Source: Candidatus Rokuibacteriota bacterium (lineage in GTDB: Bacteria > Methylomirabilota > Methylomirabilia > Rokubacteriales > CSP1-6). Taken from it: a stretch of 64,000 bases of DNA. The notes under the pieces were generated by a model that saw only the letters and a program-made list of their open reading frames with translations, was not told the origin of the DNA and did not search any database. Shown here one piece after another: positions 26,665 to 63,971 of the stretch; the stretch's first letter is position 1, and each line of letters opens with the position of its first letter. The DNA is taken from positions 972 to 64,971 of the forward strand of contig JACPCF010000059.1 of the NCBI GenBank assembly GCA_016179965.1. Reading direction: 5' to 3'. The position numbers and the translations under genes were made by a program.

Positions 26665-26805
26665 TTACCTATTGGCAAGCCAAGACCATCCGGAGTAGAG
26701 AGACTTCTGAAAAAGGAGGTGGGGGAAGCAGGTCGGCCGGGGGGTAGGCAAAGGTTCCGTGAGACACACGACTCAACAAGACAAAAGGAGAAAGGGCAAA
26801 CCCAA

Positions 26806-27717
26806 ATGAGAAAGGTGTTCGCAACCCTGATGGTGTTCTTCCTCTTCGTGGCGCTTTCGCCGATGGTGGTCGAGGCGGCTTCGCCTTGCCCGCCTGAGGT
26901 GCAGGCGGCCAAGGACATGCTGGCCAAGCAGGTTGCCAGGGGCCAGGATGTGCAGGCGCCCCGCGCCCTCGCCGGTGCCCGGAGCCAGGATGTGCAGGCT
27001 CCTCGCGGCCAGGATGTCCAGGCGCCCCGTGGTCAGGATGTTCAGGCCCCTCGCGGCCAGGATGTGCAGGCGCCCCGCTCCCTCGCCGGTGCCCGGAGCC
27101 AGGATGTTCAGGCTCCTCGCGGTCAGGATGTCCAGGCCCCTCGCGGTCAGGATGTCCAGGCCCCTCGTGGCCAGGACATTCAGGCGCCCCGCGCCCTAGG
27201 CCGTAGTCAGGATGTGCAGGCGCCTCGCGGTCAGGATGTGCAAGCGCCCCGCGGCCAGGATGTTCAGGCCCCTCGCGGTCAGGATATCCAGGCTCCTCGC
27301 GGCCAGGATGTTCAGGCGCCCCGCGGTAAGCGCGTCGAGGCGCCGCGTGGTCAGGATGTCCAGGCCCCTCGCGGTCAGGATGTGCAAGCGCCCCGCGGTC
27401 AGGATGTCCAGGCCCCTCGCGGCCAGGATGTCCAGGCCCCTCGCGGCCAGGATGTTCAGGCTCCTCGCGGTCAGGATGTGCAGGCGCCGCGTGGTCAGGA
27501 TGTCCAGGCCCCTCGCGGTCAGGATATCCAGGCTCCTCGCGGCCAGGATGTGCAGGCGCCCCGCGCCGGCACCACTGGCGCCAAGGCTGCCCAGGCGCCC
27601 CGCGCTGACAAGGCTCGGATCCTCGTGAACGAGGCCGAGGCCGCGTGCAAGGCCGGCGACACCGCCAAGGCGACCGAGAAGGCCAAGGCCGCCATGGCGA
27701 TCCTGCAGCAGAAGTAA
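26806..27717 (+). CDS. Secreted octapeptide-repeat protein: a signal peptide, 26 x (R/G)GQDVQAPR units, and a short Lys/Ala-rich C-terminal tail.
   Basis: A strong RBS (AAAGGAGAAAGGG) is followed by ATG. The N-terminus MRKVFATLMVFFLFVALSPMVVEA is a signal peptide. Residues 46-253 are 26 in-frame octapeptide units. The gene has its own terminator. Confidence 0.8.
   Translation: MRKVFATLMVFFLFVALSPMVVEAASPCPPEVQAAKDMLAKQVARGQDVQAPRALAGARSQDVQAPRGQDVQAPRGQDVQAPRGQDVQAPRSLAGARSQDVQAPRGQDVQAPRGQDVQAPRGQDIQAPRALGRSQDVQAPRGQDVQAPRGQDVQAPRGQDIQAPRGQDVQAPRGKRVEAPRGQDVQAPRGQDVQAPRGQDVQAPRGQDVQAPRGQDVQAPRGQDVQAPRGQDVQAPRGQDIQAPRGQDVQAPRAGTTGAKAAQAPRADKARILVNEAEAACKAGDTAKATEKAKAAMAILQQK
26941..27564 (+). 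repeat. In-frame coding tandem array: 26 x 24 bp (consensus GGYCAGGATGTSCAGGCSCCYCGY).
   Basis: Units differ mostly at synonymous third positions. ALAGA/SLAGA/ALG linkers occur every fourth unit near the start of the array. Confidence 0.9.
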
Positions 27718-27736
27718 GTTCCCTCGGTTCCTCCAG

Positions 27737-27771
27737 GGCCCCAGGGCAACCCCCTGGGGCCTTCTTTTTTT
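27737..27771 (+). terminator. Rho-independent terminator of the repeat-protein gene.
   Basis: GGCCCCAGGG-caacc-CCCTGGGGCC, a 10-bp perfect stem, is followed by TTCTTTTTTT. Confidence 0.75.
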
Positions 27772-27800
27772 CTCCACCCAACGGGTATAGAATCCCCCCG

Positions 27801-29258
27801 ATGAGTCTGACCCCCCTGCGCACCGCCGCGACGACCGGCCTCGCGTTGAGCCTGCTGCTGAGCTGGACCGGGCCCGGTCGGGCCGAGCGGACGCTCTCAG
27901 TCCAGGAAGCCATCCTCCGGGCCAAGCCCGCCGTTGCCCTCGTCGTGGCGGAGGTCGTGGCCGAGGTTCGGCTGAACTGCGGGAGCGGCGAGATCCAGCA
28001 CACGCCTCCCCCCTTCAGGGAGACCGGCACCGGGTGGTTCATTGACGCGCGGGGGTTCATCATCACGAACGGTCACGTCGTCCAGCCAGCCCACACCCCG
28101 CCCCGGTGGATGGTCAACTCGTTCGCCAAGCGGGCCATCGAGTCCGCCTGCGTGCCGGCCATCCTCAAGCGGATGGGGATCGCCCCCGGCGAGCGCCCCG
28201 TCGCCGAGGACCAGGTCAAGCGGCAGGCCCTCGACAGCGTCCTGCCCTCCACGAAGGTCAAGCTGGACCCGGGCATCTTCGTCGTCCTCTCCAACGGCAC
28301 GCGCGTGCGCGCCGAGGTGAAAAAGTACAGCCCGCCGCTCTCCGTGGGGGACGATCCGGAAGGCAAGATGTCCGGCCGGGACCTGGCCCTCCTGAAAATC
28401 CCGGGGAAGGACTTCCCGATCCTGCCGCTGGCGGACTCGAAGGCCGCCAAGATCGGCGACCCGATCCACATCCTGGGCTTTCCCGGGGTGGTGCTGAGCC
28501 ACGAGCTCCTGAACCAATCCGCCACCGTTGAGGCCTCCGTCACCAACGGCGCCGTCTCGGGCTTCAAGCAGGACAAGGCGAACCAGCCCGTGATCCAGAC
28601 CGACGCCCCCGCGGCCTGGGGCAACAGCGGCGGGCCGGCCGTCACGGCCAGAGGCGAGATGGTGGGGGTGCTGACCTTCGTCTCCCTCGCCCCGGGGCCC
28701 GAGGGCGGAATCGTCCAGGGCTTCAACTTCATCATCCCGTCGAACGCGGTCCGGGACTTCATCCAGGGGACGGAGGTGAAGGTCAGCGCCGAGAGCCCCT
28801 TCAACAAGGTCTGGTGGGCCGGGCTCGTGGAAGAGTTCGACGGCAACTACAAGGCCGCCGAGCGGTACTTCAGCGAGGCGAACAAGCTCGTCCCCAACCT
28901 CCCCGACGTCAAGCGGATGCTCGCGGAGGCCCAGGACAAGATCAAGAACCCGCCGCCGCGGCCGTTCCCCTGGGCGTGGGTCACACTCGCCGTCACGCTC
29001 ACGAGCCTCGGCAGCTATGGCGCCATGTGGGGGCGCAAGTGGCGGAAGAATCGCTACCGCGTGGCCCCCTCCGTGGTCATCCGTCTCCTGGAGGAGGGCA
29101 AGAATCCCCTGGTCCTCGACGTGAGGAAGCCGTCCGCCTTCGAGACGAGCCCCCTCAAGGTCCCCGGGGCCCTGTACGTCTCCCCCGACGACCTCGACGC
29201 GGGCAAGTTCGACATCGAGGTCGAGCCCAACCGCACCGTCATCGCCTACTGCACCTGA
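27801..29258 (+). CDS. Trypsin-like (S1/HtrA-type, no PDZ) serine protease with a signal peptide, one C-proximal TM helix and a C-terminal rhodanese domain ending at an in-frame TGA.
   Basis: The catalytic triad context is TNGHVV / DLALLKI / GNSGGPAV. The TM segment is WAWVTLAVTLTSLGSYGAMWG. The rhodanese N-terminal part is LVLDVRKPSAFE…VIAYCT, then TGA. A TATAGAAT -10-like box lies 8 nt upstream of the ATG. Confidence 0.75.
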   Translation: MSLTPLRTAATTGLALSLLLSWTGPGRAERTLSVQEAILRAKPAVALVVAEVVAEVRLNCGSGEIQHTPPPFRETGTGWFIDARGFIITNGHVVQPAHTPPRWMVNSFAKRAIESACVPAILKRMGIAPGERPVAEDQVKRQALDSVLPSTKVKLDPGIFVVLSNGTRVRAEVKKYSPPLSVGDDPEGKMSGRDLALLKIPGKDFPILPLADSKAAKIGDPIHILGFPGVVLSHELLNQSATVEASVTNGAVSGFKQDKANQPVIQTDAPAAWGNSGGPAVTARGEMVGVLTFVSLAPGPEGGIVQGFNFIIPSNAVRDFIQGTEVKVSAESPFNKVWWAGLVEEFDGNYKAAERYFSEANKLVPNLPDVKRMLAEAQDKIKNPPPRPFPWAWVTLAVTLTSLGSYGAMWGRKWRKNRYRVAPSVVIRLLEEGKNPLVLDVRKPSAFETSPLKVPGALYVSPDDLDAGKFDIEVEPNRTVIAYCT

Positions 29259-29438
29259 CCCGACGAAGTCACGAGCGCCAGGATGGCGCAAAAGCTCAGG
29301 CGGATGGGCTACAAGGATGTCAAGATCCTGAAGGGTGGCCTCGGGGCCTGGGCCAACGCGGGCCTTCCGCTCGAGGCCAAAGCCGGCCTGCCGACGATCG
29401 GCGTCGAGCTCTACAAGAGCATGCTCGGAAGCGTCTGA
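29259..29438 (+). other. In-frame continuation of the rhodanese domain after the TGA (PDEVTSARMAQKLRRMGYKDVKILKGGLGAWANAGLPLE…).
   Basis: It has the same frame as the protease ORF. It aligns to the C-terminal half of single-domain rhodaneses (helix after the active-site loop, plus the GGxxAW motif). Confidence 0.55.
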
Positions 29439-42738: not shown

Positions 42739-45114
42739 CTATCGCTCTCCGGATGAAACAGGAGCTCCCGATGCCGTCCGTACTTGGCCGTGTCGCAGCG
42801 CCGCCCAGACGCGCTGCGGCGTCATCGGCAGGTCGAGATGTCGAACGCCCTGGCCCGCGAGCGCGTCGAGCACCGCGTTCACCGCCGACGGCAGGGACCC
42901 CGCGACACCCGACTCGCCCGCCCCCTTCACGCCGAGCGGGTTCGTGGTGCATGGTACGCAGTGATGCCCGACTCTCATGTCCGGCATGTCGTCGGCTCGC
43001 GGAATCATGTAGTCCATGAACGATGCGGTCAACAGCTGTCCGCTCTCGCTGTAGACGACCGCTTCGCCCAGCACCTGGCCAAGGCCCTGTGCGACGCCGC
43101 CGTGGATCTGCCCCTCGACGATGGGCAAATGCAGGATGTTGCCGACGTCGTCCACGGCCGTGTAGCCGACCACCGTGACCACGCCCGTCTCCGGATCGAT
43201 CTCGACCTCGCAGATGTGGCAACCGTTGGGAAAGCTCATCTGCGGCGAGACAAACTTGGCCGTGTTGTCTAGCCCGCCGGCGAGCTCCTCCGGCATCCCG
43301 GGCATCGTGCGCGCGCGCCGGGCGAGATCCAGGATGCCGATCTCCCGGTCGGTGCCGGTCACGCGGAACCTACCGTCTCGGAACTCGATGTCGAACGGGG
43401 CGGCTTCGAACAGGTGTGCGGCGATCCCGCGGCCCTTCTCGATCGCCGTGTCGCACGCGAGCGCGGCTGCGCTGCCGGCCATCATCATCGAGCGCGACGC
43501 GACGCTCGGCGTGCCGACCGGCACCTCGTCGCTGTCGCCCTGGATGAGCCTAACCGCGCTCACGTCCACGCCGAGCCTTGTGGCAACGAGACGTGGGAAC
43601 GTCGACGCATGCCCCTGCCCCATCGCCTGCACGCCCGTGCGCAGCGCGATTGTGCCGTCATTCTCGAAGCGCAGATCCACGGTCTCGTCGAGGATGCCCC
43701 CCGCCACCTCGAGGAAGGAACACAGACCGATCCCTCGCACCCTGCCTGCCCTCTCCGCCGCCGCGCGCCGGGCCGGGAAGCCCTTCCAGTCCGCCAGCGC
43801 CAGCGCCTTGTCCATCACCGCCTCGAACTCCCCGCTGTCATAGACCTGGCCGTTCGGCGCCTTGTACGGCATCGCGGACGGGGCGATGAGGTTGCGTCGC
43901 CGCAGCTCCACGCGGTCGATGCCCATCGTCAGCGCCGCCGAGTCGATCAGCCGCTCGATGAGGTAAATCGCCTCCGGGCGGCCCGCGCCGCGGTACGGCC
44001 CCAGCGGTGCCGCGTTGGTGAGCACCATCTTCACGTCGATCTGGATGGCGGGAATCACGTACACGCTCGACAGGCAGTTCTTCGTGTTGTTGGTCGCGAA
44101 GATGGCTGCGTACGTCGAGACGTACGCTCCGAGCCCCACGAACGTGCGCACCCGCAGGGCGAGGAACCTCCCGCGCGCGTCGAGCGCAAGCTCGCCCTCG
44201 AGTACGCCGTCGCGGCCGTGGGTGTCCGCGAGGAAGCTCTCGAGCCGACTTGCTCGCCACTTCACCGGCCGGCCCACACGTCGAGCCGCATAGAGCAGCG
44301 CCGCGTACTCCGCGTACGCCTGTACCTTCATGCCGAAGCCGCCGCCGACGTCGTACGTGAGCACGCGGATGCTCTGCGGGGGGACCTTGAACACGCCCTC
44401 GGCGAGCAGCTTCCGCACCACCGAGACGCCCTGCGTACCCGCGACCAGCGTGTAGCGCTCCGCCGCCGCGTCCCACTGCCCGATGGCAGCGCGCGGCTCC
44501 AGCGCCGAGGGGGCTAGGCGCGTGTCGAGCAGCCGGACGCTCGCGACGTGGGCCGCGCGCGCAAACGCGCTCTCGACCGCGGCCGCATCGCCGTCGGTCC
44601 AGTCGAGGGCGACGTTGTCCGGCGCCTCGGGCCAAATCGGCTGCGCCTCCGGGGCCATCGCGCGCTCGACGTCGGACGAGGCCGGCAGTTCGTCAAGGTC
44701 GACGATGAGGGCCTCGACCGCATCCTGCGCCTGCGCGGCGGTCTCCGCCACCACGATCGCGATCGGTTCGCCGTCGTAGCGCACCCGATCGACCGCGAGC
44801 GGCGGCATCGCCGCACCGAGCATCGGCTTACCGCCGCGCCCCGGGAACGACGCCGCGGGCCGGATCGCCCCCAGCCCGTCCGCGACGAGGTCCCTTCCCG
44901 TGAACACGCCGATGACGCCGGGCATCTTCAGGGCTTTCGAGACGTCCGTCCCGCGGAGCTCCGCGTGCCCGACTTGCGCCCGCACGAACGCGGCATACGC
45001 CTGCCCGGGCACATTGATGTCGTCGGTGAACCGCGCGCGCCCGGTGAGCAGCGGTTCGTCCTCGCTGCACAGGGCGTCACGGTCGCTGCCGAATCGTAGA
45101 AGGTTCCCGTTCAC
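42739..45114 (-). CDS. Xanthine dehydrogenase/CoxL-family molybdopterin-binding large subunit, form II-like (AYRGAGR-type loop). It is an orphan with no adjacent small or medium subunits.
   Basis: It is 791 aa with the aldehyde oxidase/xanthine dehydrogenase a/b hammerhead and MoCo-binding domains. The loop reads GPYRGAGRPEA. Confidence 0.8.
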   Translation of the reverse strand: MNGNLLRFGSDRDALCSEDEPLLTGRARFTDDINVPGQAYAAFVRAQVGHAELRGTDVSKALKMPGVIGVFTGRDLVADGLGAIRPAASFPGRGGKPMLGAAMPPLAVDRVRYDGEPIAIVVAETAAQAQDAVEALIVDLDELPASSDVERAMAPEAQPIWPEAPDNVALDWTDGDAAAVESAFARAAHVASVRLLDTRLAPSALEPRAAIGQWDAAAERYTLVAGTQGVSVVRKLLAEGVFKVPPQSIRVLTYDVGGGFGMKVQAYAEYAALLYAARRVGRPVKWRASRLESFLADTHGRDGVLEGELALDARGRFLALRVRTFVGLGAYVSTYAAIFATNNTKNCLSSVYVIPAIQIDVKMVLTNAAPLGPYRGAGRPEAIYLIERLIDSAALTMGIDRVELRRRNLIAPSAMPYKAPNGQVYDSGEFEAVMDKALALADWKGFPARRAAAERAGRVRGIGLCSFLEVAGGILDETVDLRFENDGTIALRTGVQAMGQGHASTFPRLVATRLGVDVSAVRLIQGDSDEVPVGTPSVASRSMMMAGSAAALACDTAIEKGRGIAAHLFEAAPFDIEFRDGRFRVTGTDREIGILDLARRARTMPGMPEELAGGLDNTAKFVSPQMSFPNGCHICEVEIDPETGVVTVVGYTAVDDVGNILHLPIVEGQIHGGVAQGLGQVLGEAVVYSESGQLLTASFMDYMIPRADDMPDMRVGHHCVPCTTNPLGVKGAGESGVAGSLPSAVNAVLDALAGQGVRHLDLPMTPQRVWAALRHGQVRTASGAPVSSGER

Positions 45115-55122: not shown

Positions 55123-56340
55123 TCAGATCATGAGGTCCAGATTGGAGAGCGACCGCGCGAGATGCTCGATCTCTGCCGGCGTCGTATGGACCGAGAAACT
55201 GGCTCGGACGGTTCCCACAACTCCAAGGCGCCGCATGAGAGGCATCGCGCAATGGTGACCGGCGCGGACGGCGATCCCCTCCTGGTCGAGGAGGTGGGCG
55301 ACGTCGTGGGGGTGGAGGCCGCGGACGTTGAAGGCGACCACGGCTCCCTTGATCTCGGGGTTCCGCGGCCCGTAGATGGTCGTGTCGCCGTTCTTCGCCA
55401 GCAGCTCCAGCGTCAGCCGGCAGAGAGCCCGCTCGTGGGCAGCGACGGCCTCCATCCCGATTGCCGACAGGTACTCCACGGCCGCCCCGAGGCCCACGAT
55501 GGGGGCGATGGGCGGTGTCCCCGGCTCGAAGCGCCAGGGCAGATCGTTCCACTGGGCGTGGTCGATCCAGACTTCCTTGATCATCTCGCCCCCGCCCCAG
55601 GCGGGCTCCAGCGAGTCGAGCACGGCGCGACGCCCGTAGAGCACGCCCCCCCCTGTCGGGCCGAGCATCTTGTGTCCCGAGAAGGCGTAAAAGTCCGCGC
55701 CCAAACTCTGGACGTTCACGGGCAGATTGGGGACGGCTTGAGCGCCATCTACCAGGACGAGGGCGCCCGCGGCATGGGCCCGCTCGGCGATCTCCCTGAC
55801 CGGGTTGATGGTGCCAAGGACATTGGAGACGTGGGCCACCGCCACCACTCGCGTCCGGCGCGAGAGGAGGCGGGTGAAGGCCTCCAGGTCCAGAAAACCT
55901 TCGCCGATCACGGGCACCGCTTTCAGCACGGCCCCACGATCCCGGCAGAGCATCTGCCAGGGAATCAGGTTGGAGTGGTGCTCCATCTCCGTGACGATGA
56001 CTTCGTCACCGGCCTTGACGGTCCTGCCGATGGCCTGAGCCACCAGGTTGATCGCGTCGGTGGTCCCCCGCGTGAAGACGATCTCCTCCCGCTGGGCGGC
56101 ACCGATGAACTGCCTGACGCGGTCCCGCACCGACTCGAGGAGGGCCGTGGCCTCCTCCCCCAGCGTGTGGATCGAGCGGTGGACGTTGGCGTGGGTGGTC
56201 TCGTAGTAGCGGCGCACCGCCTCGATCACCTGGCGCGGCTTCTGGCTCGACGCGGCCGAATCGAGGTAGACGAGGGGCTTGCCGTTCACGCGACGGTTCA
56301 GTATCGCGAAGTCGGGTCGGCAGCGTTCCGCCAATGTCAT
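55123..56340 (-). CDS. sufS: Cysteine desulfurase, SufS-type (class V aminotransferase).
   Basis: The PLP-lysine motif is SGHKMLGPTGGG and the catalytic-cysteine loop is RAGHHCA. Confidence 0.85.
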   Translation of the reverse strand: MTLAERCRPDFAILNRRVNGKPLVYLDSAASSQKPRQVIEAVRRYYETTHANVHRSIHTLGEEATALLESVRDRVRQFIGAAQREEIVFTRGTTDAINLVAQAIGRTVKAGDEVIVTEMEHHSNLIPWQMLCRDRGAVLKAVPVIGEGFLDLEAFTRLLSRRTRVVAVAHVSNVLGTINPVREIAERAHAAGALVLVDGAQAVPNLPVNVQSLGADFYAFSGHKMLGPTGGGVLYGRRAVLDSLEPAWGGGEMIKEVWIDHAQWNDLPWRFEPGTPPIAPIVGLGAAVEYLSAIGMEAVAAHERALCRLTLELLAKNGDTTIYGPRNPEIKGAVVAFNVRGLHPHDVAHLLDQEGIAVRAGHHCAMPLMRRLGVVGTVRASFSVHTTPAEIEHLARSLSNLDLMI

Positions 56341-56708
56341 CGCGCGGCACCCACGGCGGTCAGGGCTCCTTTCAGAACCTGAAGCGGGAGGGTCACGCAC
56401 GTGATCCGGGAGGGGCGGATCTTCGCCTCGAGGCGCGTCAGGAGATCGTCGGGTGCCAGCGCCAGCACTTCACCGATCGCCCGCCCCCGGGCGATCTCCA
56501 CGAGGAGGTCGGCCGAGGCCATGCAGATGGCGCAGGAATCCCCCTTGAAGCGGGCGTCGGCGACGCTCCCGTTGGCCAGCTTGAGTTGAATCCGCACTCG
56601 GTCTCCGCAGAGCGGGTTCACATCCTCAAAGACGGCGTCGGCGTCGGCGAGATCGCCGAAGAAGCGCGGGTGCCGGAAACGCTCGCTGATGACCGAGCTG
56701 TAGAGCAT
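56337..56708 (-). CDS. sufU: SufU/IscU-like sulfur-transfer scaffold protein.
   Basis: It has three conserved cysteines (NPLCGD, GDSCAIC, RITCVTLP). It overlaps sufS by ATGA. Confidence 0.75.
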   Translation of the reverse strand: MLYSSVISERFRHPRFFGDLADADAVFEDVNPLCGDRVRIQLKLANGSVADARFKGDSCAICMASADLLVEIARGRAIGEVLALAPDDLLTRLEAKIRPSRITCVTLPLQVLKGALTAVGAAR

Positions 56709-56714
56709 GGGAAC

Positions 56715-57755
56715 CTACTCGAGCTCGCCGCGAGGCGCGGTAGCCCGATACGGCGGGAACCTGAAGGCCATCTCGCGCGAGAGCAGGCCGCCGTGACCGA
56801 GCGCGGCGATCTCGGCGTTGCCGATCTCATCCCCCGCCAGGATTCGTGGGAAGACCAGGTCGAATGTCGTCGCCTGGGAGAACATCCCGCACGTGGGCAT
56901 CCCCACCAGGGGCGCTCCCTCCCAGCGGGCGATCCAGAGGAGGCTCCCGGGATGGGCCGGCGATCCGTGCCGTTCCATCCGCCCCCCGACGAGTTCCAGG
57001 CCTCCGAACACCGGGTCGAGTGGGTCCAGCGCGCTGGCGCCCGCCACGATGAAGATCTGAGCGCCGGCGTCCTTGAGCGCCTCGAGCTCCTTGGCGACGG
57101 CATGGGGGCCCATCCCGGCAAAGCGGATGGGGAGCAGCCGCGAGCCGAACCAGTCGATCTTCTCCTGGAGCGCCGACTCGAACCGCCGCCGCTGCTGTTC
57201 CTCCAGCCTCTCCCGCGCCACGGCGCCGATGACGAAGGGCGTGAACGGGCTCACCGCGAGCACGCCCCCGGCCTGTCGGGCCAGACGTTCCACTTCGGCG
57301 ATCGTGGCGGAGGCGATGACCAGCGGAGTGACCTTGGCCTTGGCCACCACCTCCCCGGCCTCCACGGGCTGGCCGTCAAAGAGGGTGAAGACCGAGATCC
57401 CCTCGAAGGCGTTCGCCTTGGAGAGCGGCCCGGTCCTGACCTTGAGGAGACCCCGCCGCGCGGCGGTCAGCGCCCACTGGCCCCCGGTGTAGCCCTTCAC
57501 CTGAACGCCGTCGCCGACGACGGCCCGCGAGAGACGGGCCCCCGCCTCTTCCTCGTGGAGGTCCCCGGGCTCGAGCTCCAGGAGATGGAGCTCCTCCCAG
57601 TCACAGCCGAGAATCCGTTCCGCCAGGACGCCGTCCAGCGTCTCGCCCTTCTGGCCCACGACTTTCTTCGCCCCGTCCCTGACGTCGTGGCAGAGTACCT
57701 TCCCGATCAGTGCTCCAGCCGTCGCCCCCGACCTCAGGACCGCGTGGGCCTTCAA
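56715..57755 (-). CDS. Hypothetical protein in the Mo-hydroxylase maturation cluster. The family was not recognised.
   Basis: It is a 346-aa ORF translationally coupled to the xdhC paralog upstream. No motif could be assigned confidently. Confidence 0.4.
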   Translation of the reverse strand: MKAHAVLRSGATAGALIGKVLCHDVRDGAKKVVGQKGETLDGVLAERILGCDWEELHLLELEPGDLHEEEAGARLSRAVVGDGVQVKGYTGGQWALTAARRGLLKVRTGPLSKANAFEGISVFTLFDGQPVEAGEVVAKAKVTPLVIASATIAEVERLARQAGGVLAVSPFTPFVIGAVARERLEEQQRRRFESALQEKIDWFGSRLLPIRFAGMGPHAVAKELEALKDAGAQIFIVAGASALDPLDPVFGGLELVGGRMERHGSPAHPGSLLWIARWEGAPLVGMPTCGMFSQATTFDLVFPRILAGDEIGNAEIAALGHGGLLSREMAFRFPPYRATAPRGELE

Positions 57756-58849
57756 CGCTTCCCCTCTCTGACCTTCCGGCTGATCGGCATCCCTGTGGCG
57801 CCGACGCGCTCGGCCAGAATCTCTGCCAGGATGGCCAGCGCGATCTCGGGAGCGGTCTGGGCGCCGAGATCAAGGCCGATGGGGACACGGATCCGCGCCA
57901 GCAGCTCCTCGGACACGCCCTCTTCTCTCAGGAGGGTGAGGATGGCGTTGCCGCGGCGCGTGCTCCCCAGCATCCCGATGTAGCCGGCCTTGCTCGCCAG
58001 GGCGTGGCGGAGCACCGGGAGGTCGTACTTGTAGTCGTGCGCCACCAGGACCAGGGCCGTCACTGGAGTGAGCGGGATGGACCTCACCACTTCGGAAGGA
58101 ATGCCCACTTCCAGGCGGTCCACGTCGGGGAAGCGCTCGCGGCTGGCGAAGCGCGGGCGGCCGTCCACCACGATCGTCCTGAAGCCGAGGATCTTGGCCA
58201 GGGAGACGAGCGGCATGGCGACATGGCCGGCGCCGACCACCAGGAGCGTGGACGGAGGCCCGAAGGTCTCGACGAAGCAGCGGATCCCCTCGAGGAAGAG
58301 CGTCTTCGAGACGCCGCGGCTCAGGCACTCCCCAGCCTCGGCGGCGAACCGCCGGTCCAGGAAGGGATCGCCCAGACTCCCCTCGGTGCGCCCGTCGTCC
58401 AGGAGCAGGAGCTTCGCCCCGTTGTTGGGAGGATCCAGGCGCGTGATCAGCGCGCCCCAGCCGCCCTGCTCGGCGTGGGCCCGGAGCGTCTCGTAGTAGG
58501 TCAGCGGCGGGGCGTCGGTCCGGGCCAGCCTTAGCGGCTCGACGAAGACCTCGATGGTCCCGCCGCACGTGAGCCCGATCTCCCACGCCTCTTCGTCTCC
58601 GAGGTTCAGCTCCAGGAGCTTCGGGGTATTCTCGCCGAGGACGCCTTCGGCCTCCTCGATCACCTGGGCGTCCACGCAGCCGCCGATGGTCACCGAGCCC
58701 AGGATCCGGCCGCCGCCCCCCACGAGCATCTTGGCCCCCTCCTTGCGCGGGGTCGTGCCGCGGGTGTTGACCAGCGTGGCCAGGGCCACCTTCTCCTCTA
58801 CGTTTTTCAGCCGTTCGAACTGCTCGAAGAGCTCGTGCATAGCGCTCAA
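57752..58849 (-). CDS. XdhC/CoxI family molybdenum-cofactor insertion chaperone.
   Basis: It has an N-terminal XdhC_CoxI domain and an XdhC Rossmann domain (LLVVGAGHVAMPL). Confidence 0.75.
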   Translation of the reverse strand: MSAMHELFEQFERLKNVEEKVALATLVNTRGTTPRKEGAKMLVGGGGRILGSVTIGGCVDAQVIEEAEGVLGENTPKLLELNLGDEEAWEIGLTCGGTIEVFVEPLRLARTDAPPLTYYETLRAHAEQGGWGALITRLDPPNNGAKLLLLDDGRTEGSLGDPFLDRRFAAEAGECLSRGVSKTLFLEGIRCFVETFGPPSTLLVVGAGHVAMPLVSLAKILGFRTIVVDGRPRFASRERFPDVDRLEVGIPSEVVRSIPLTPVTALVLVAHDYKYDLPVLRHALASKAGYIGMLGSTRRGNAILTLLREEGVSEELLARIRVPIGLDLGAQTAPEIALAILAEILAERVGATGMPISRKVREGKR

Positions 58850-59073: not shown

Positions 59074-60024
59074 TCATCCCGTGGGATCTGCGGAGTATCT
59101 TCCCGGATCCCGGTCGAACGTTTCCTTGCATCGGAGGCAGCAGAAGTAAACGCTTCTCCCCAACGCCCCTGATCGATATCTGGCCGATGCGACCTCCACG
59201 AGCATCCCGCAGACCGGATCCCTAGCTTCGGTTTCGCCGATCTCCTCCTGAGCGGTTTGCGCGCCCTTCCAGTCAACCTTCTGGCTCCTCGACACCTGAA
59301 TGATCTCGGCCAGGATGCTCACCGCGATCTCCTGAGGCGTAACCGCGCCGATGTCAAGCCCCGCCGGGGCCTTCAGCCGGCCGAGCCGTTCGGCTGGCAC
59401 CCCCCTCGCCCGCAAAGCCTCGATGACCGCGCCGGCCCGCTTCCGGCTTGCCACCAGGCTCACGTAGCCGGCCTCGCTCCGAAGCGCCTGCAGGAGGGCC
59501 TCTTCGTCGAAGGTCCCATGGCTGGCCACCACGACGAAGGTCCGCGGAGTGACGCGGAGCTGGGCAAGGCGATCGGCGGAGCTTTCGGAGGGCACCAGGA
59601 CCACGGCAAAGTCCATGGCCTGGCCGAGCTTCGCCAGCGTCTCGATCACCGGCCCTCGGCCGAAGAGGAGGAGTTCGGGTTTCGGCAGCACCGGCTCCAC
59701 GTAGATCTCCAACGTCCCCCCGCTGTGGCACGTCATCGGGTATTCGAGCACACCTTCTCGCCTGCCGGAACCGGTCCCGCCTTCCCCCACCAGGGCGATG
59801 AAGCGCGGCTGGCCGTCGCCGAGGGCCTTGAGCGCCTCTTTGACCACCACCGGCTGGGCGCAGCTACCCCCGACCCATCCCGAAACCGTTCCATCTTTCC
59901 GGATGAGAGCCTTGGCTCCGGGCTTGGCCGAGGTCGGCCGCTCGCACCGAACCACGGTAGCCAGGGCAAACGGCTCACCCTGCTGAGCAAGCTCATACGC
60001 CAGGGCGAAGAGATCATCGGCCAC
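59074..60024 (-). CDS. XdhC/CoxI family protein fused to a C-terminal YHS (TRASH-like) metal-binding domain.
   Basis: XdhC_CoxI plus a Rossmann domain (LLLFGRGPVIETLAKL) are followed by DPVCGMLVEVASARYRSGALGRSVYFCCLRCKETF, a YHS-type Cys cluster. Confidence 0.75.
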   Translation of the reverse strand: MADDLFALAYELAQQGEPFALATVVRCERPTSAKPGAKALIRKDGTVSGWVGGSCAQPVVVKEALKALGDGQPRFIALVGEGGTGSGRREGVLEYPMTCHSGGTLEIYVEPVLPKPELLLFGRGPVIETLAKLGQAMDFAVVLVPSESSADRLAQLRVTPRTFVVVASHGTFDEEALLQALRSEAGYVSLVASRKRAGAVIEALRARGVPAERLGRLKAPAGLDIGAVTPQEIAVSILAEIIQVSRSQKVDWKGAQTAQEEIGETEARDPVCGMLVEVASARYRSGALGRSVYFCCLRCKETFDRDPGRYSADPTG

Positions 60025-60042: not shown

Positions 60043-60627
60043 TCACGTCTTCTCTGCTCCGCCGCCCAGGAGCCGCCTGACTGCGCGCCCCATCGTCTGC
60101 CTCACGGCTTTGGCCCCCAGCGAGAGGGCGTCCAGCTGCTTGGCCTCCGATGGAACCGCTTGAGCGCCCTCCTGGCCAGAGCCTACCTCCAGCTTCTGCC
60201 GCAGGGCAGCGGCGAACTGCTGAAAGATCTGGTTCGACACGCTCTCGATCATCCCTCGGCCCATCTGGGCGAGGATCCCGCTGATATTCACCTGCGAGGC
60301 CACCGTGACTTCGGTGCCGCCAACTATCGGGTGGAGGCGGCTCTGCATCCGCATCTCGGCCCCGCCCTTGCCCTTGACGTCCTGCCCCTGGCCGATCAGC
60401 TCGGCTTCCCATTGCATCGCGTCCAGGCGCTCAAAGCGGATCTTGCCCTTGTAGCTGGCCGTCACGGGCCCCACCTTCACGGTGATCGTTCCCAGATAGG
60501 TACGGTCGTCCACCTTCTCGGTGATCGCCGCCCCGGGCAAACAGCTGGCCACCTGGTAGGGGTCGGTGAGGAAGCTCCACACTCGATCAGGAGGCGCATC
60601 CAGAGCGAACTTCTGCTCGATCTTCAT
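60043..60627 (-). CDS. coxG: CoxG-like SRPBCC family protein (carbon monoxide dehydrogenase subunit G).
   Basis: It is 194 aa with the pattern MKIEQKFALDAPPDRVWSFLTDPYQVASCLPGA…. Confidence 0.8.
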   Translation of the reverse strand: MKIEQKFALDAPPDRVWSFLTDPYQVASCLPGAAITEKVDDRTYLGTITVKVGPVTASYKGKIRFERLDAMQWEAELIGQGQDVKGKGGAEMRMQSRLHPIVGGTEVTVASQVNISGILAQMGRGMIESVSNQIFQQFAAALRQKLEVGSGQEGAQAVPSEAKQLDALSLGAKAVRQTMGRAVRRLLGGGAEKT

Positions 60628-61116: not shown

Positions 61117-63486
61117 CTACTCAGTGACCCCGTGCTCACGCAGGAGCTTCCAGACCTTGGCCGGAGTGATGGGAATGTCGATGTGGCGCACCCCCAAATG
61201 CCAGAGGGCATCCACGACCGCGTTGGTGATGGCCGCCGGCGCGCCGACCGTGGCCGACTCCCCCACCCCCTTCGCCCCCAGCGGATGGTGGGGCGACGGG
61301 GTGCAGGTTTTGTCGGTCTCCCACCGGGGCGTCTCCACCGCCGTGGGCAGCAGGTAGTCCATGAAGCTGCCGCCCTGGATGTTGCCGTGCTCATCGTAAG
61401 AGATCTCCTCGTAGAGCGCCGGGGCCAGCCCCATGGTGAGCCCGCCGTGGATCTGGCCTTCGACGATCATCGGGTTGATGATGTTGCCGCAGTCGTCCAC
61501 CGCCACGAAGCGCCGGACCTTCACCTCCCCGGTCCCCTTGTCGATGTCCACCACCGAGATGTAGCTCCCGAAGGGGAAGGTGAGGTTGGGCGGGTCGTAA
61601 TACGAGACCGCCTCGAGCCCCGCCTCCATGCCTTGCGGATGATTCGTATAGGCCGCGAAGGCGATCTCCTGGATGGTCTTCGCCCGGTTGGGTGCCCCCT
61701 TCACCGAGAACTTCCCCGGCTCCCAGACCAGATCTTCTTCCGCGGCTTCCAGCAGGTGCGCCGCGATCTTCCGCGCTTTGTCCCGGATCTTCCGGGCCGC
61801 CATGGCCCCGGCCGCGCCGGCGACGGGGGTCGAGCGGCTCGCGTAGGTGCCAAGGCCGTAGGGAGCAGTGTCGGTGTCGCCCTCCTCCACCTGGATGTCG
61901 GCCGCGGGAATCCCCAGCTCCTCGGCGAGGATCTGGGCGTACGTGGTCTCGTGACCCTGCCCCTGGGACTTGGTCCCGAAGCGGGCGATGGCCTTGCCGG
62001 TCGGATGGATCCGGATCTCGCAGCTGTCGAACATCTTGAGGCCCAGGATGTCGAAGTGCTTGGACGGGCCCGCCCCCACGATCTCGGTGAAGCTCGAGAT
62101 CCCGATCCCCATCAGCTCGCCGCGCTTGCGCTTCTCCGCCTGCTCTCGCCGGAGCTCGGCATAGCCGATCTTCTCCATGGCCTTTCGGAGGGCGCCGGCG
62201 TAGTTTCCGCTGTCGTACTCCCATCCGAGGGCGGACTTGTACGGGAACTGCTCGGGCTTGATGAAGTTCTTGAGCCTGAACTCGGCCGGGTCCATCCCGA
62301 GCTGGTGGGCCACGAGGTCCGCCATCCTCTCGATGGTATGCACGGCCTCCGTGACGCGGAACGAGCACCGGTACGCGATCCCCCCCGGCGGCTTGTTGGT
62401 GTATACCCCGTCCACCTCCACGTGGGCCGCCTTGAAGTCGTAGGAGCCGGTACAGATATGGAAGAGCCCGGCCGGGAACTTGGAGGGGTTGGCCGCCGCG
62501 TCGGCGTAGCCGTGGTCGGCGATCGTCTTGATCCTGAGCGCCGTGAGCGTGCCGTCCTTCTTCGCCGCCAGCTCGGCCGTGATGTGATAGTCCCGGGCGA
62601 AGGAGTCGGCCTGGAGGTTTTCCATCCGGTCCTCCATCCACTTGACCGGCTTCCCCGTCAGCACCGAGGCCGCCACGGCGATCACGTACCCCGGATAGAC
62701 CGGCACCTTGCCCCCGAAGCCGCCGCCGATGTCGGGGGAGATGATCCGGATCTTGTGCTCGGCCAGGCCAACGTGCCCTGCCACCAGGGCAAACACCGTG
62801 CGGATCGCGTGGGGCGCCTGGGTGGTCATCCAGACCGTCAGCTTGCCTGACACTTTGTCGAAGTGGGCGATGCAACCGCAGGTCTCAATGGAGGCCACGT
62901 GGATCCGCGGGAGGTAGATGTCCTGCTTGACCGTCACCTCAGCCTCGCGGAAGACGCGATCGGTGGCGGCCTTGTCCCCCCACTCCCAGTGCCAGATGTG
63001 GTTATCCTTCTTGTCCTTCTTGTCGGTGCGGAGCACCGGCGCTCCGGGCTCCAGCGCCTTCTTGGGATCGACGACGACGGGGAGCGGCTCGTACTCGACC
63101 TCCACCGCCTCGACGCCATCGGCGGCTTTGTAACGGTCCGTGGCGAGGACCGCTGCCACCTCCTGAGCCTGATACATGACCTTCTCCACCGGGAGCACCA
63201 TCTGGGTGTCCGACATGAGGGTCGGCATCCAGTGGAGGTTATACTTGGCGAGATCCTGGCCGGTGATGACGGCCAGCACCCCCGGCATCGCCAGGGCCTT
63301 GGTGGGATCGATCTTCTTGATCTTCGCGTGGGCGAAGGGGCTCCGGACGATGTCGAGGTAGAGCATGCCCGGAAGCTGGATGTCGTCCACGTAGGTCCCC
63401 TTCCCCCGGATGAAGCGCGGGTCCTCCTTGCGCTTCACCGAGTGCCCCATCCCTCCGATCTCGGGCGAGGTCTTGGGCGCCATCAT
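61117..63486 (-). CDS. coxL: Aerobic carbon monoxide dehydrogenase large subunit CoxL, form I (active-site loop AYRCSFR).
   Basis: It is 790 aa from MMAPKT. The loop [10 protein letters not shown] is diagnostic of form I Mo-Cu CODH. Its start overlaps the coxS stop as ATGA. Confidence 0.85.
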
Positions 63487-63971
63487 GACCCTCCCTGCCG
63501 CAGCTTGGCCGCGGCGTACTCGATTGCCTTCACGATGTTCACGTAGCCGGTGCACCGGCAGAGGTTTCCTGAGATGGCCCGGCGGATCTGCTCCTCGTCG
63601 GGTTGGGGGTTCTTCTTGAGGAACGCGTAGCTGGCCATCAGCATGCCGGGGGTACAGTAGCCGCACTGGAGGCCGTGCTCCTGCATGAAGCCTTCCTGGA
63701 GCGGGTGGAGCTTGCCGTCCTGCTCGAGGCCCTCCACGGTCATGATCTCTTTCCCGTGGGCCTGGACGGCGAACACGGAGCACGACTTCACGGCCCGCCC
63801 GTCGAGGAGGACGGTGCAGGCCCCGCAATGCGTGGTGTCGCAGCCGATGTGGGTCCCGGTCAGCCGGAGGATGTCCCGGATGAGGTGCACCAGGAGGAGC
63901 CGCGGCTCCACCTCGGCCTCATGCTTCTCCCCGTTGATCGCGACTTGCACGAGCATCGTCCTCACCTCCAT
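63483..63971 (-). CDS. coxS: CO dehydrogenase small subunit CoxS ([2Fe-2S] binding).
   Basis: Both [2Fe-2S] motifs are present ([15 protein letters not shown] and CGYCTPG…CRCTGY). Confidence 0.9.

Follow-up and report, generated by a model that had tools for sequence, protein, structure and literature searches.

The 64,000-nucleotide stretch of DNA analyzed here (the window), from contig JACPCF010000059.1 of a Candidatus Rokuibacteriota bacterium, carries on its plus strand a gene for a secreted S1 serine protease whose reading frame meets a TGA codon near its 3′ end. A first-pass annotation, made from this sequence alone, had pointed out that the protease open reading frame (ORF) ends at this TGA while the same frame runs on for 59 more codons to a second TGA, and our reading of the DNA confirms it. 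The codons beyond the internal TGA complete a rhodanese-like domain, and from a comparison of orthologous sequences we consider it very probable that this TGA is the selenocysteine (Sec) codon of an unannotated predicted selenoprotein.

A protease-rhodanese gene with an in-frame TGA

The most likely start codon is the ATG at 27801, from which translation gives 485 residues up to the internal TGA; the ORF as listed reaches further 5′, to a GTG at 27645. Around the site the frame reads VIAY-C484-T485-TGA-PDEVTSARMAQKL, and the 59 open codons that follow include a GGLGAW motif. When the product is read through the TGA, a Pfam Rhodanese match (PF00581, E 1.2e-11, 45.4 bits against a cut-off of 22.2) spans the codon, bearing out the earlier proposal that the downstream frame supplies the remainder of an otherwise complete domain. 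From N- to C-terminus, the read-through product consists of a signal-like segment, a Trypsin_2 domain, a TPR-like hairpin, a membrane helix and the rhodanese-like domain; the TPR-like Pfam match, between protease and membrane helix, is weak, and the protease triad of His92, Asp194 and Ser276 (GNSGGP) is invariant in 15 orthologues. Because the basic segment RKWRKNRYR directly follows the membrane helix FPWAWVTLAVTLTSLGSYGAMWG, the positive-inside rule places the rhodanese domain in the cytoplasm. The topology predicted in this way, with the protease outside, a single membrane helix and the rhodanese inside, agrees with the one suggested in the first-pass annotation. Relatives in one sub-branch (P0010, P0016-P0018, P0020, P0022, P0030, P0037 and P0077; 620-683 residues) have an extra C-terminal cyclic nucleotide (cNMP)-binding domain (PF00027) after the rhodanese domain, in keeping with a cytoplasmic C-terminus and a cytoplasmic sensory role for the C-terminal part. 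This sub-branch, to which loci L017 and L089 also belong, has Ser or Thr, from a sense codon, in place of Sec.

The best NCBIfam model for the C-terminal domain is NF041203, rhodanese_LYCAU, titled "rhodanese-related (seleno)protein". Its members are known as a computationally predicted selenoprotein family, "rhodanese-like form 3" or COG0607 form 2, with a CxU motif; the CxU rhodanese selenoprotein was predicted by Zhang and Gladyshev, and TKB26178.1 is an example (PMC9312934, PMC13188914). The A-Y-C-T-TGA of the window matches the Y-C-x-U of that family, its motif being taken from the model name and the review table.

An AlphaFold2 model, made on the domain of a Cys-form homologue and not on the window sequence, has a pLDDT of 83 overall and about 90 around the site. 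It contains a strand at VVAY, a three-residue coil C-T-C, and a helix that starts from the Pro right after the Sec-equivalent residue. Since the helix begins directly after that residue, Sec would occupy the helix N-cap, two residues after the invariant Cys. As modeled, C-T-U therefore lies between the central β-strand and the N-terminus of a helix, an arrangement that differs from the canonical six-residue rhodanese cradle. Helix N-caps are typically Ser, Thr, Asp or Gly, and an N-cap position would fit the spectrum of residues that replace Sec in orthologues. The top Foldseek matches are all rhodanese domains, the nearest solved structures being the rhodanese-like domain of Alr3790 and other single-domain rhodaneses. 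The counterpart of the canonical catalytic Cys is ambiguous between Cys484 and Sec486 and depends on the alignment: it coincides with the Sec position when the domain is aligned to 6mxv without gaps, and with Cys484, given a two-residue insertion, in a family-profile alignment.

Conservation of the TGA and of a candidate SECIS hairpin

A protein search with the read-through product as query placed the family in Rokubacteria/Methylomirabilota. The matches listed include many full-length relatives of 540-545 residues, and among these matches about 16 of 100 full-length homologues contain YC[ST]CPDE; they also include at least 15 distinct protein clusters of 476-487 residues, 65-94% identical, that all end at YCT. 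At the level of DNA, we compared 93 loci from NCBI metagenome-assembled genomes (MAGs), GTDB species representatives and metagenomes, with the site readable in about 79 of them. TGA stands at the exact homologous codon in 57 of these readable loci. Sense codons encode Ser (13 loci), Cys (TGC or TGT; L033, L085 and L093), Glu (GAA; a CSP1-6 MAG and a matching metagenome contig) and, in one locus each, Thr, Asp, Ala and Gly. All TGA loci whose contig does not break off within the gene have 43-61 further open codons, and these specify the same C-terminal half-domain. Synteny is conserved among the orthologous loci, in the order GGDEF gene, repeat protein, protease-rhodanese gene, HIT.

The TGA-bearing orthologous proteins diverge down to 55% amino-acid identity. 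In a neighbor-joining tree of 66 orthologues, TGA occurs throughout and the sense codons are about 12 scattered replacements, which suggests that TGA is the ancestral state, long kept, and that the sense codons are derived; with the tree rooted at its midpoint, the ancestral codon state is ambiguous by parsimony. L039 (TGA) and L033 (TGC), with identical 40-residue flanks, make up what reads as a classic Sec/Cys pair. The first-pass annotation had suggested that orthologues be aligned for Cys, Sec or a sense codon at this position, and had held that sense codons would speak for a pseudogenizing mutation if Sec machinery were also absent. The majority carry TGA, and the minority with sense codons (Ser, Cys, Thr, Asp, Glu, Ala and Gly) are accounted for by the roughly 12 independent replacements.

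Selection on the sequence after the TGA was assessed over 42 codons in 43 distinct TGA sequences. Across the three codon positions the mean entropy amounts to 0.42, 0.31 and 0.87 bits; pN/pS is 0.33, with a median dN/dS of 0.23, and none of the 43 sequences contains a stop or a frameshift in these 42 codons. The codons directly behind the TGA are already constrained, with P-D-E invariant, so that constraint sets in 5′ of the ATG from which gene callers start a 51-residue ORF.

The second conserved feature is a small hairpin in the coding region that starts 16 nt after the UGA and has its apical loop beginning 21 nt after it. An A-U pair may extend it to a 6-bp stem with a GGA triloop; otherwise the stem is 5 bp and the loop 5 nt, and the free energy lies between -9.1 and -10.2 kcal/mol. 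The model for a bacterial selenocysteine insertion sequence (bSECIS) specifies a loop of 3-9 nt, an upper stem of 4-16 bp, a G in the first two loop positions, a UGA-loop spacing of 16-37 nt and a free energy of -7.5 kcal/mol or lower (PMC13188914). The hairpin lies within all of these published limits, with a loop of 5 (or 3) nt, a stem of 5-6 bp and a spacing of 21 nt. On a single sequence such a hairpin is weak evidence: the 70-nt fold of the window sequence alone is unremarkable (z = -1.6), and in this GC-rich window 8 of 36 in-frame TGAs taken arbitrarily (about 22%) have some hairpin that satisfies loose bSECIS rules. The signal above chance comes from the comparison between genomes.

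In all 41-42 distinct TGA sequences the stem GCGCC...GGCGC is invariant, with AGUGU, AGGAU, CGGGU, CGUGU or CGUGC as the loop and always a G at loop position 2. The stem falls on the codons AGC-GCC and (x)xG-GCG-Cxx, and at the synonymous third base of AGC, GCC and GCG the entropy is zero, against 0.7-1.6 bits at other Gly/Ala four-fold sites nearby, and codon 11 after the TGA encodes Q, R, L or H and always starts with C, the last base of the stem. The helix is intact in 42 of 42 TGA sequences versus 6 of 18 distinct sense-codon sequences (Fisher p = 1.3e-8, ignoring phylogeny), and is eroded in the other 12 of these 18 orthologues. Four of the six intact sense-codon cases keep the exact hairpin sequence, among them L033 (Cys) and L005 (Glu), whose flanks still match their TGA relatives. 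No other RNA-level feature of the region is as conserved as this hairpin. The first-pass annotation had judged it not to be a convincing SECIS, a reasonable caution from one sequence alone; set against the published bSECIS model and its invariance in all distinct TGA sequences, that judgment was too pessimistic.

The Glu codon mentioned above is a GAA at 8142-8144 of L005 (Candidatus Rokubacteria CSP1-6) and at 5456-5458 of L015, the matching metagenome contig. In both, the 120 nt around the codon, SECIS-like hairpin included, are almost the same as in the TGA-bearing L006, and comparison of the three points to a recent two-base change from TGA to GAA, which is an unusual replacement for Sec.

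Table 1. Features of the protease-rhodanese gene, in window coordinates
Feature	Position	Strand	Details and basis
Complete predicted selenoprotein gene	27801-29438	+	545 codons plus stop; translation, Pfam, orthologues
Trypsin_2 / S1 serine protease domain	28026-28670	+	residues 76-290; Pfam PF13365, E 4.6e-25
Predicted single membrane helix	28965-29033	+	about residues 389-411; read from sequence
Rhodanese-like domain, spanning the in-frame TGA	29079-29357	+	residues 427-519; Pfam PF00581
Cys484 codon TGC	29250-29252	+	invariant family columns ("YC" motif); predicted Sec partner in C-x-U
In-frame TGA, predicted Sec codon (Sec486)	29256-29258	+	UGA-C context; TGA conserved in orthologues
Codons after Sec (59)	29259-29435	+	C-terminal rhodanese half and amphipathic tail
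bSECIS-like hairpin, GCGCC / AGGAU / GGCGC	29275-29279 / 29280-29284 / 29285-29289	+	folding, conservation
True stop TGA	29436-29438	+	orthologues share C-terminus YKSMLGxx*

Proposed decoding of the UGA and rival explanations

Elsewhere in this DNA, UGA behaves as a stop codon. TGA ends 21 of 39 window genes and is the commonest stop, and prfB, which encodes release factor 2 (RF2) and lies at 1-850 on the minus strand, carries the classic autoregulatory +1 frameshift site CGG GGG CAC CTT TGA C (ATG 850-848, CTT 784-782, TGA 781-779). Because of this frameshift site and the frequency of TGA among the stops, we take UGA to be an ordinary stop here and reject its reassignment as a sense codon; any recoding is therefore specific to the site in the protease-rhodanese gene. 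Beyond the frameshift site, prfB continues in the +1 frame (Pfam PCRF and RF-1) until the left edge of the window cuts it off.

For that site we infer SelB-dependent decoding. A ribosome would reach the UGA in its weak UGA-C context, where the hairpin would act as a bacterial SECIS and recruit SelB-GTP carrying Sec-tRNA(Sec). This complex would compete with RF2; on insertion of Sec, translation would run to the stop at 29436. The predicted product, of 545 residues, would be a secreted or periplasmic S1 serine protease joined through a membrane helix to a cytoplasmic rhodanese-like domain with Cys484-Thr-Sec486, and the C484/U486 pair would probably form a redox or sulfur/selenium-transfer center, a selenenylsulfide C-x-U.

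Several observations weigh against this proposal. With Cys substituted for Sec, the domain alone scores 79.7 bits against NF041203 and the whole protein 75.7, both short of the cut-off of 115. The residues that replace Sec are mostly Ser (the commonest), Thr, Asp, Glu, Ala or Gly and seldom Cys, which is unusual for a catalytic Sec. RNAalifold recovered only the invariant 5-bp helix, with no covariation and no conserved lower stem; compensatory covariation is lacking because the stem never varies. The Fisher test that links TGA to the hairpin treats the sequences as independent of phylogeny, and Rfam at gathering thresholds returned only a tRNA-Ala in the window and no SECIS family. Within the 64 kb, no selA, selB or selD turned up when 40 ORFs were annotated with Pfam, and ARAGORN predicted no tRNA-Sec, either there or in the roughly 700 kb of orthologous loci retrieved.

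The first-pass annotation had left three explanations side by side, of which recoding as Sec is now strongly supported by the conserved TGA, the selected downstream frame and the conserved hairpin. The second, a recent nonsense mutation, would have pseudogenized only the cytoplasmic rhodanese, with protease and membrane helix still functional and the 3′ part decaying. Gene callers and databases do give products of 485-487 residues with a separate downstream ORF of 51-52 residues, and some orthologues do have a sense codon at the site, but a TGA that persists in 57 loci, in proteins only 55% identical, and that looks ancestral to the sense codons is hard to reconcile with recent decay, and the 42 codons behind it are under purifying selection. 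Much the same evidence bears on the idea that the TGA is a true stop followed by a small gene of its own (MAQKL...), whose product of 51 residues associates with the truncated protein. Such an ORF of 51-52 residues is called 25 nt after the TGA in the window (start 29283) and in L001-L004; its putative start codon, however, is unconserved (ATG, GTG or GCG, the last encoding Ala in L007), the eight codons between TGA and start are conserved as protein, and sense-codon orthologues carry both halves as one uninterrupted rhodanese domain. Coding periodicity and purifying selection after the TGA therefore exclude both a decaying fragment and a separate small gene, and we regard each as highly improbable. 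An error of sequencing or assembly, the third of the original explanations, would require only a single base (TGC or TGG to TGA), and a related NCBI record, P0120, has an apparent assembly frameshift elsewhere in the gene. The identical TGA is nevertheless present in dozens of independent assemblies (NCBI MAGs, JGI, ENA and Logan); this recurrence excludes an error, to which we attach a vanishingly small chance.

It could also be that the UGA is read through without Sec, by a near-cognate tRNA that inserts Trp, Cys or Arg, or that truncated and extended isoforms are produced side by side, the latter with a standard amino acid at the site. A hairpin could stimulate such read-through in a leaky UGA-C context, which is conserved in most sequences; the position tolerates Ser, Thr, Asp, Glu, Ala, Gly and Cys, and the window holds no Sec machinery that we could find. 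Against this, conserved programmed read-through of UGA with a standard amino acid is, to our knowledge, very rare in bacteria. The hairpin moreover fits a SelB-type bSECIS in size, spacing and loop G, TGA/TGC pairs occur, and a recognized predicted seleno-rhodanese family has its Sec at the same C-x-U position. The phylum also has predicted selenoproteins: 63 selenoprotein genes are predicted for a single Methylomirabilota MAG (PMC13188914), and Sec-type group 4 hydrogenases have been reported in Methylomirabilota (PMC13582414). We consider read-through with a standard amino acid improbable, and insertion of Sec by far the better account of the conserved codon and hairpin.

If Sec is inserted, the fusion of protease and C-x-U module invites speculation about function. 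The protein might be a selenium- or redox-gated transmembrane signaling protease, in which the cytoplasmic C-x-U module, accompanied in some relatives by the cNMP-binding domain, controls the periplasmic protease in response to the cell's redox, persulfide or selenium state. We think this unlikely. The efficiency of Sec insertion would then decide between a regulated protein of full length and one of 485 residues without the complete sensor domain, envelope proteolysis would be tied to selenium supply, and the repeated replacements by the N-cap residues Ser, Thr or Asp would mark lineages that keep the scaffold and give up the switch.

Genomic context and relation to known systems

The gene just upstream of the protease-rhodanese gene (about 26800-27717, plus strand) encodes a signal-peptide protein of about 25-35 tandem octapeptide repeats (GQDVQAPR); the underlying tandem array, at 26984-27565, has a 24-nt period with 73-82% matches. 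In L001, L002 and L004, the position of the repeat protein is taken by a gene without Pfam match and of variable length (142-293 residues). The repeat protein might be a partner or substrate of the protease. Between the two genes, at 27736-27775 on the plus strand, there is a GC-rich inverted repeat (GGCCCCAGGG...CCCTGGGGCC) with a T-run behind it, which resembles an intrinsic terminator; if it is real, the protease gene would have its own promoter.

Farther along the window, on the minus strand, lies a cluster (59077-60024, 57752-58849, 42739-45114, 61117-63828, 60043-60627 and 55123-56708) that encodes two molybdenum-hydroxylase large subunits, two XdhC-family maturation proteins, one of them ending in a YHS domain, as well as CoxG and, with NifU, a NifS-like class-V aminotransferase. 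YHS-domain proteins and selenium-dependent molybdenum hydroxylases feature in catalogues of selenium utilization; no TGA or sel gene was seen in the molybdenum-hydroxylase/XdhC cluster of the window. A scan of the window for a second selenoprotein, as coding-flanked in-frame TGAs with a hairpin, gave only antisense and adjacent-gene artefacts.

The record P0120 (NCBI; a 3.5-kb contig of a Candidatus Rokubacteria MAG) encodes 616 residues, of which 320 are identical to the window protein before the sequence switches to another frame. The switch is probably an assembly indel in a near-identical genome, and represents a second route by which the protease-rhodanese gene is mis-annotated.

What appears to be new here is the fusion of a CxU rhodanese to a secreted S1 protease via a membrane helix, as Sec in a CxU rhodanese was already known as a prediction. 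The architecture of S1 protease, helix and CxU rhodanese is missing from the selenoprotein catalogues examined: the 2026 selenoprotein review has no entry with "protease", "peptidase" or "trypsin", and the deep-Sep paper mentions neither rhodanese nor protease. The protease-rhodanese family is widespread in Rokubacteria, and our reading corrects a systematic error of annotation, in which the gene is stored as a truncated "trypsin-like peptidase" and an orphan ORF of 51 residues. This mis-annotated state extends over at least 15 protein clusters and 57 loci in Rokubacteria/Methylomirabilota from soil and groundwater. The hairpin offers a compact and sharply conserved 15-nt SECIS candidate for a phylum reported with very large selenoproteomes, and the natural series from Sec to Cys, Ser, Thr, Asp or Glu at one site would be useful for asking what Sec contributes. 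The general principles of recoding are left unchanged.

The closest known relative of the C-terminal domain, the NF041203 family, shares with it the rhodanese fold and a predicted Sec two residues after Tyr-Cys (LYCAU there, AYCTU here), and its selenoproteins likewise have a bSECIS hairpin directly 3′ of the UGA inside the coding region. In contrast to that small stand-alone protein, with a model of 126 positions, the domain described here makes up residues 427-527 of a membrane-anchored protease of 545 residues, and its sense-codon relatives mostly have Ser, Thr or Asp and not Cys. The predicted hairpin resembles the SECIS elements of E. coli fdhF and fdnG in being a coding-region stem-loop soon after an in-frame UGA, with an unpaired G in the apical loop and a spacing within 16-37 nt; it is much smaller, at 5-6 bp, and different in sequence. 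Among rhodaneses of known structure, Alr3790 of Anabaena (PDB 3ilm, 3k9r and 3hix) is matched with the same fold by the model (Foldseek E 4e-8, TM about 0.7-0.8), as is the case for the canonical single-domain sulfurtransferases GlpE (1gmx) and YgaP (5hbl). Alr3790 also shares with the window family the acidic "(G/P)DE.TS" segment after the central strand; it differs in having Gly at the family's invariant Cys and in lacking Sec. Canonical rhodaneses have a six-residue CX5 cradle loop, whereas the model of the window family has only C-T-U between strand and helix.

The protease half of the protein is reminiscent of the S1C proteases HtrA, DegP and DegS, with which it has in common a Trypsin_2 domain, the His-Asp-Ser triad (GNSGGP) and a secretion signal. 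It is not a canonical HtrA, because Pfam detected no PDZ domain in the read-through protein; in addition, its score with TIGR02037 is 78.2 bits against a cut-off of 416.2, and, unlike HtrA, DegP and DegS, it has a C-terminal membrane helix that joins it to a cytoplasmic rhodanese domain. Proteases with Sec have been proposed before, among Global Ocean Sampling (GOS) sequences, in the form of a "trypsin-like serine protease" and "MucD-like" proteins predicted to contain Sec (PMC2398784). Those families carry their Sec within the trypsin domain or in the CxxU of a thioredoxin/PDZ protein (PMC2398784), whereas the protease domain of the window protein is without Sec, and its predicted Sec resides in the fused rhodanese domain.

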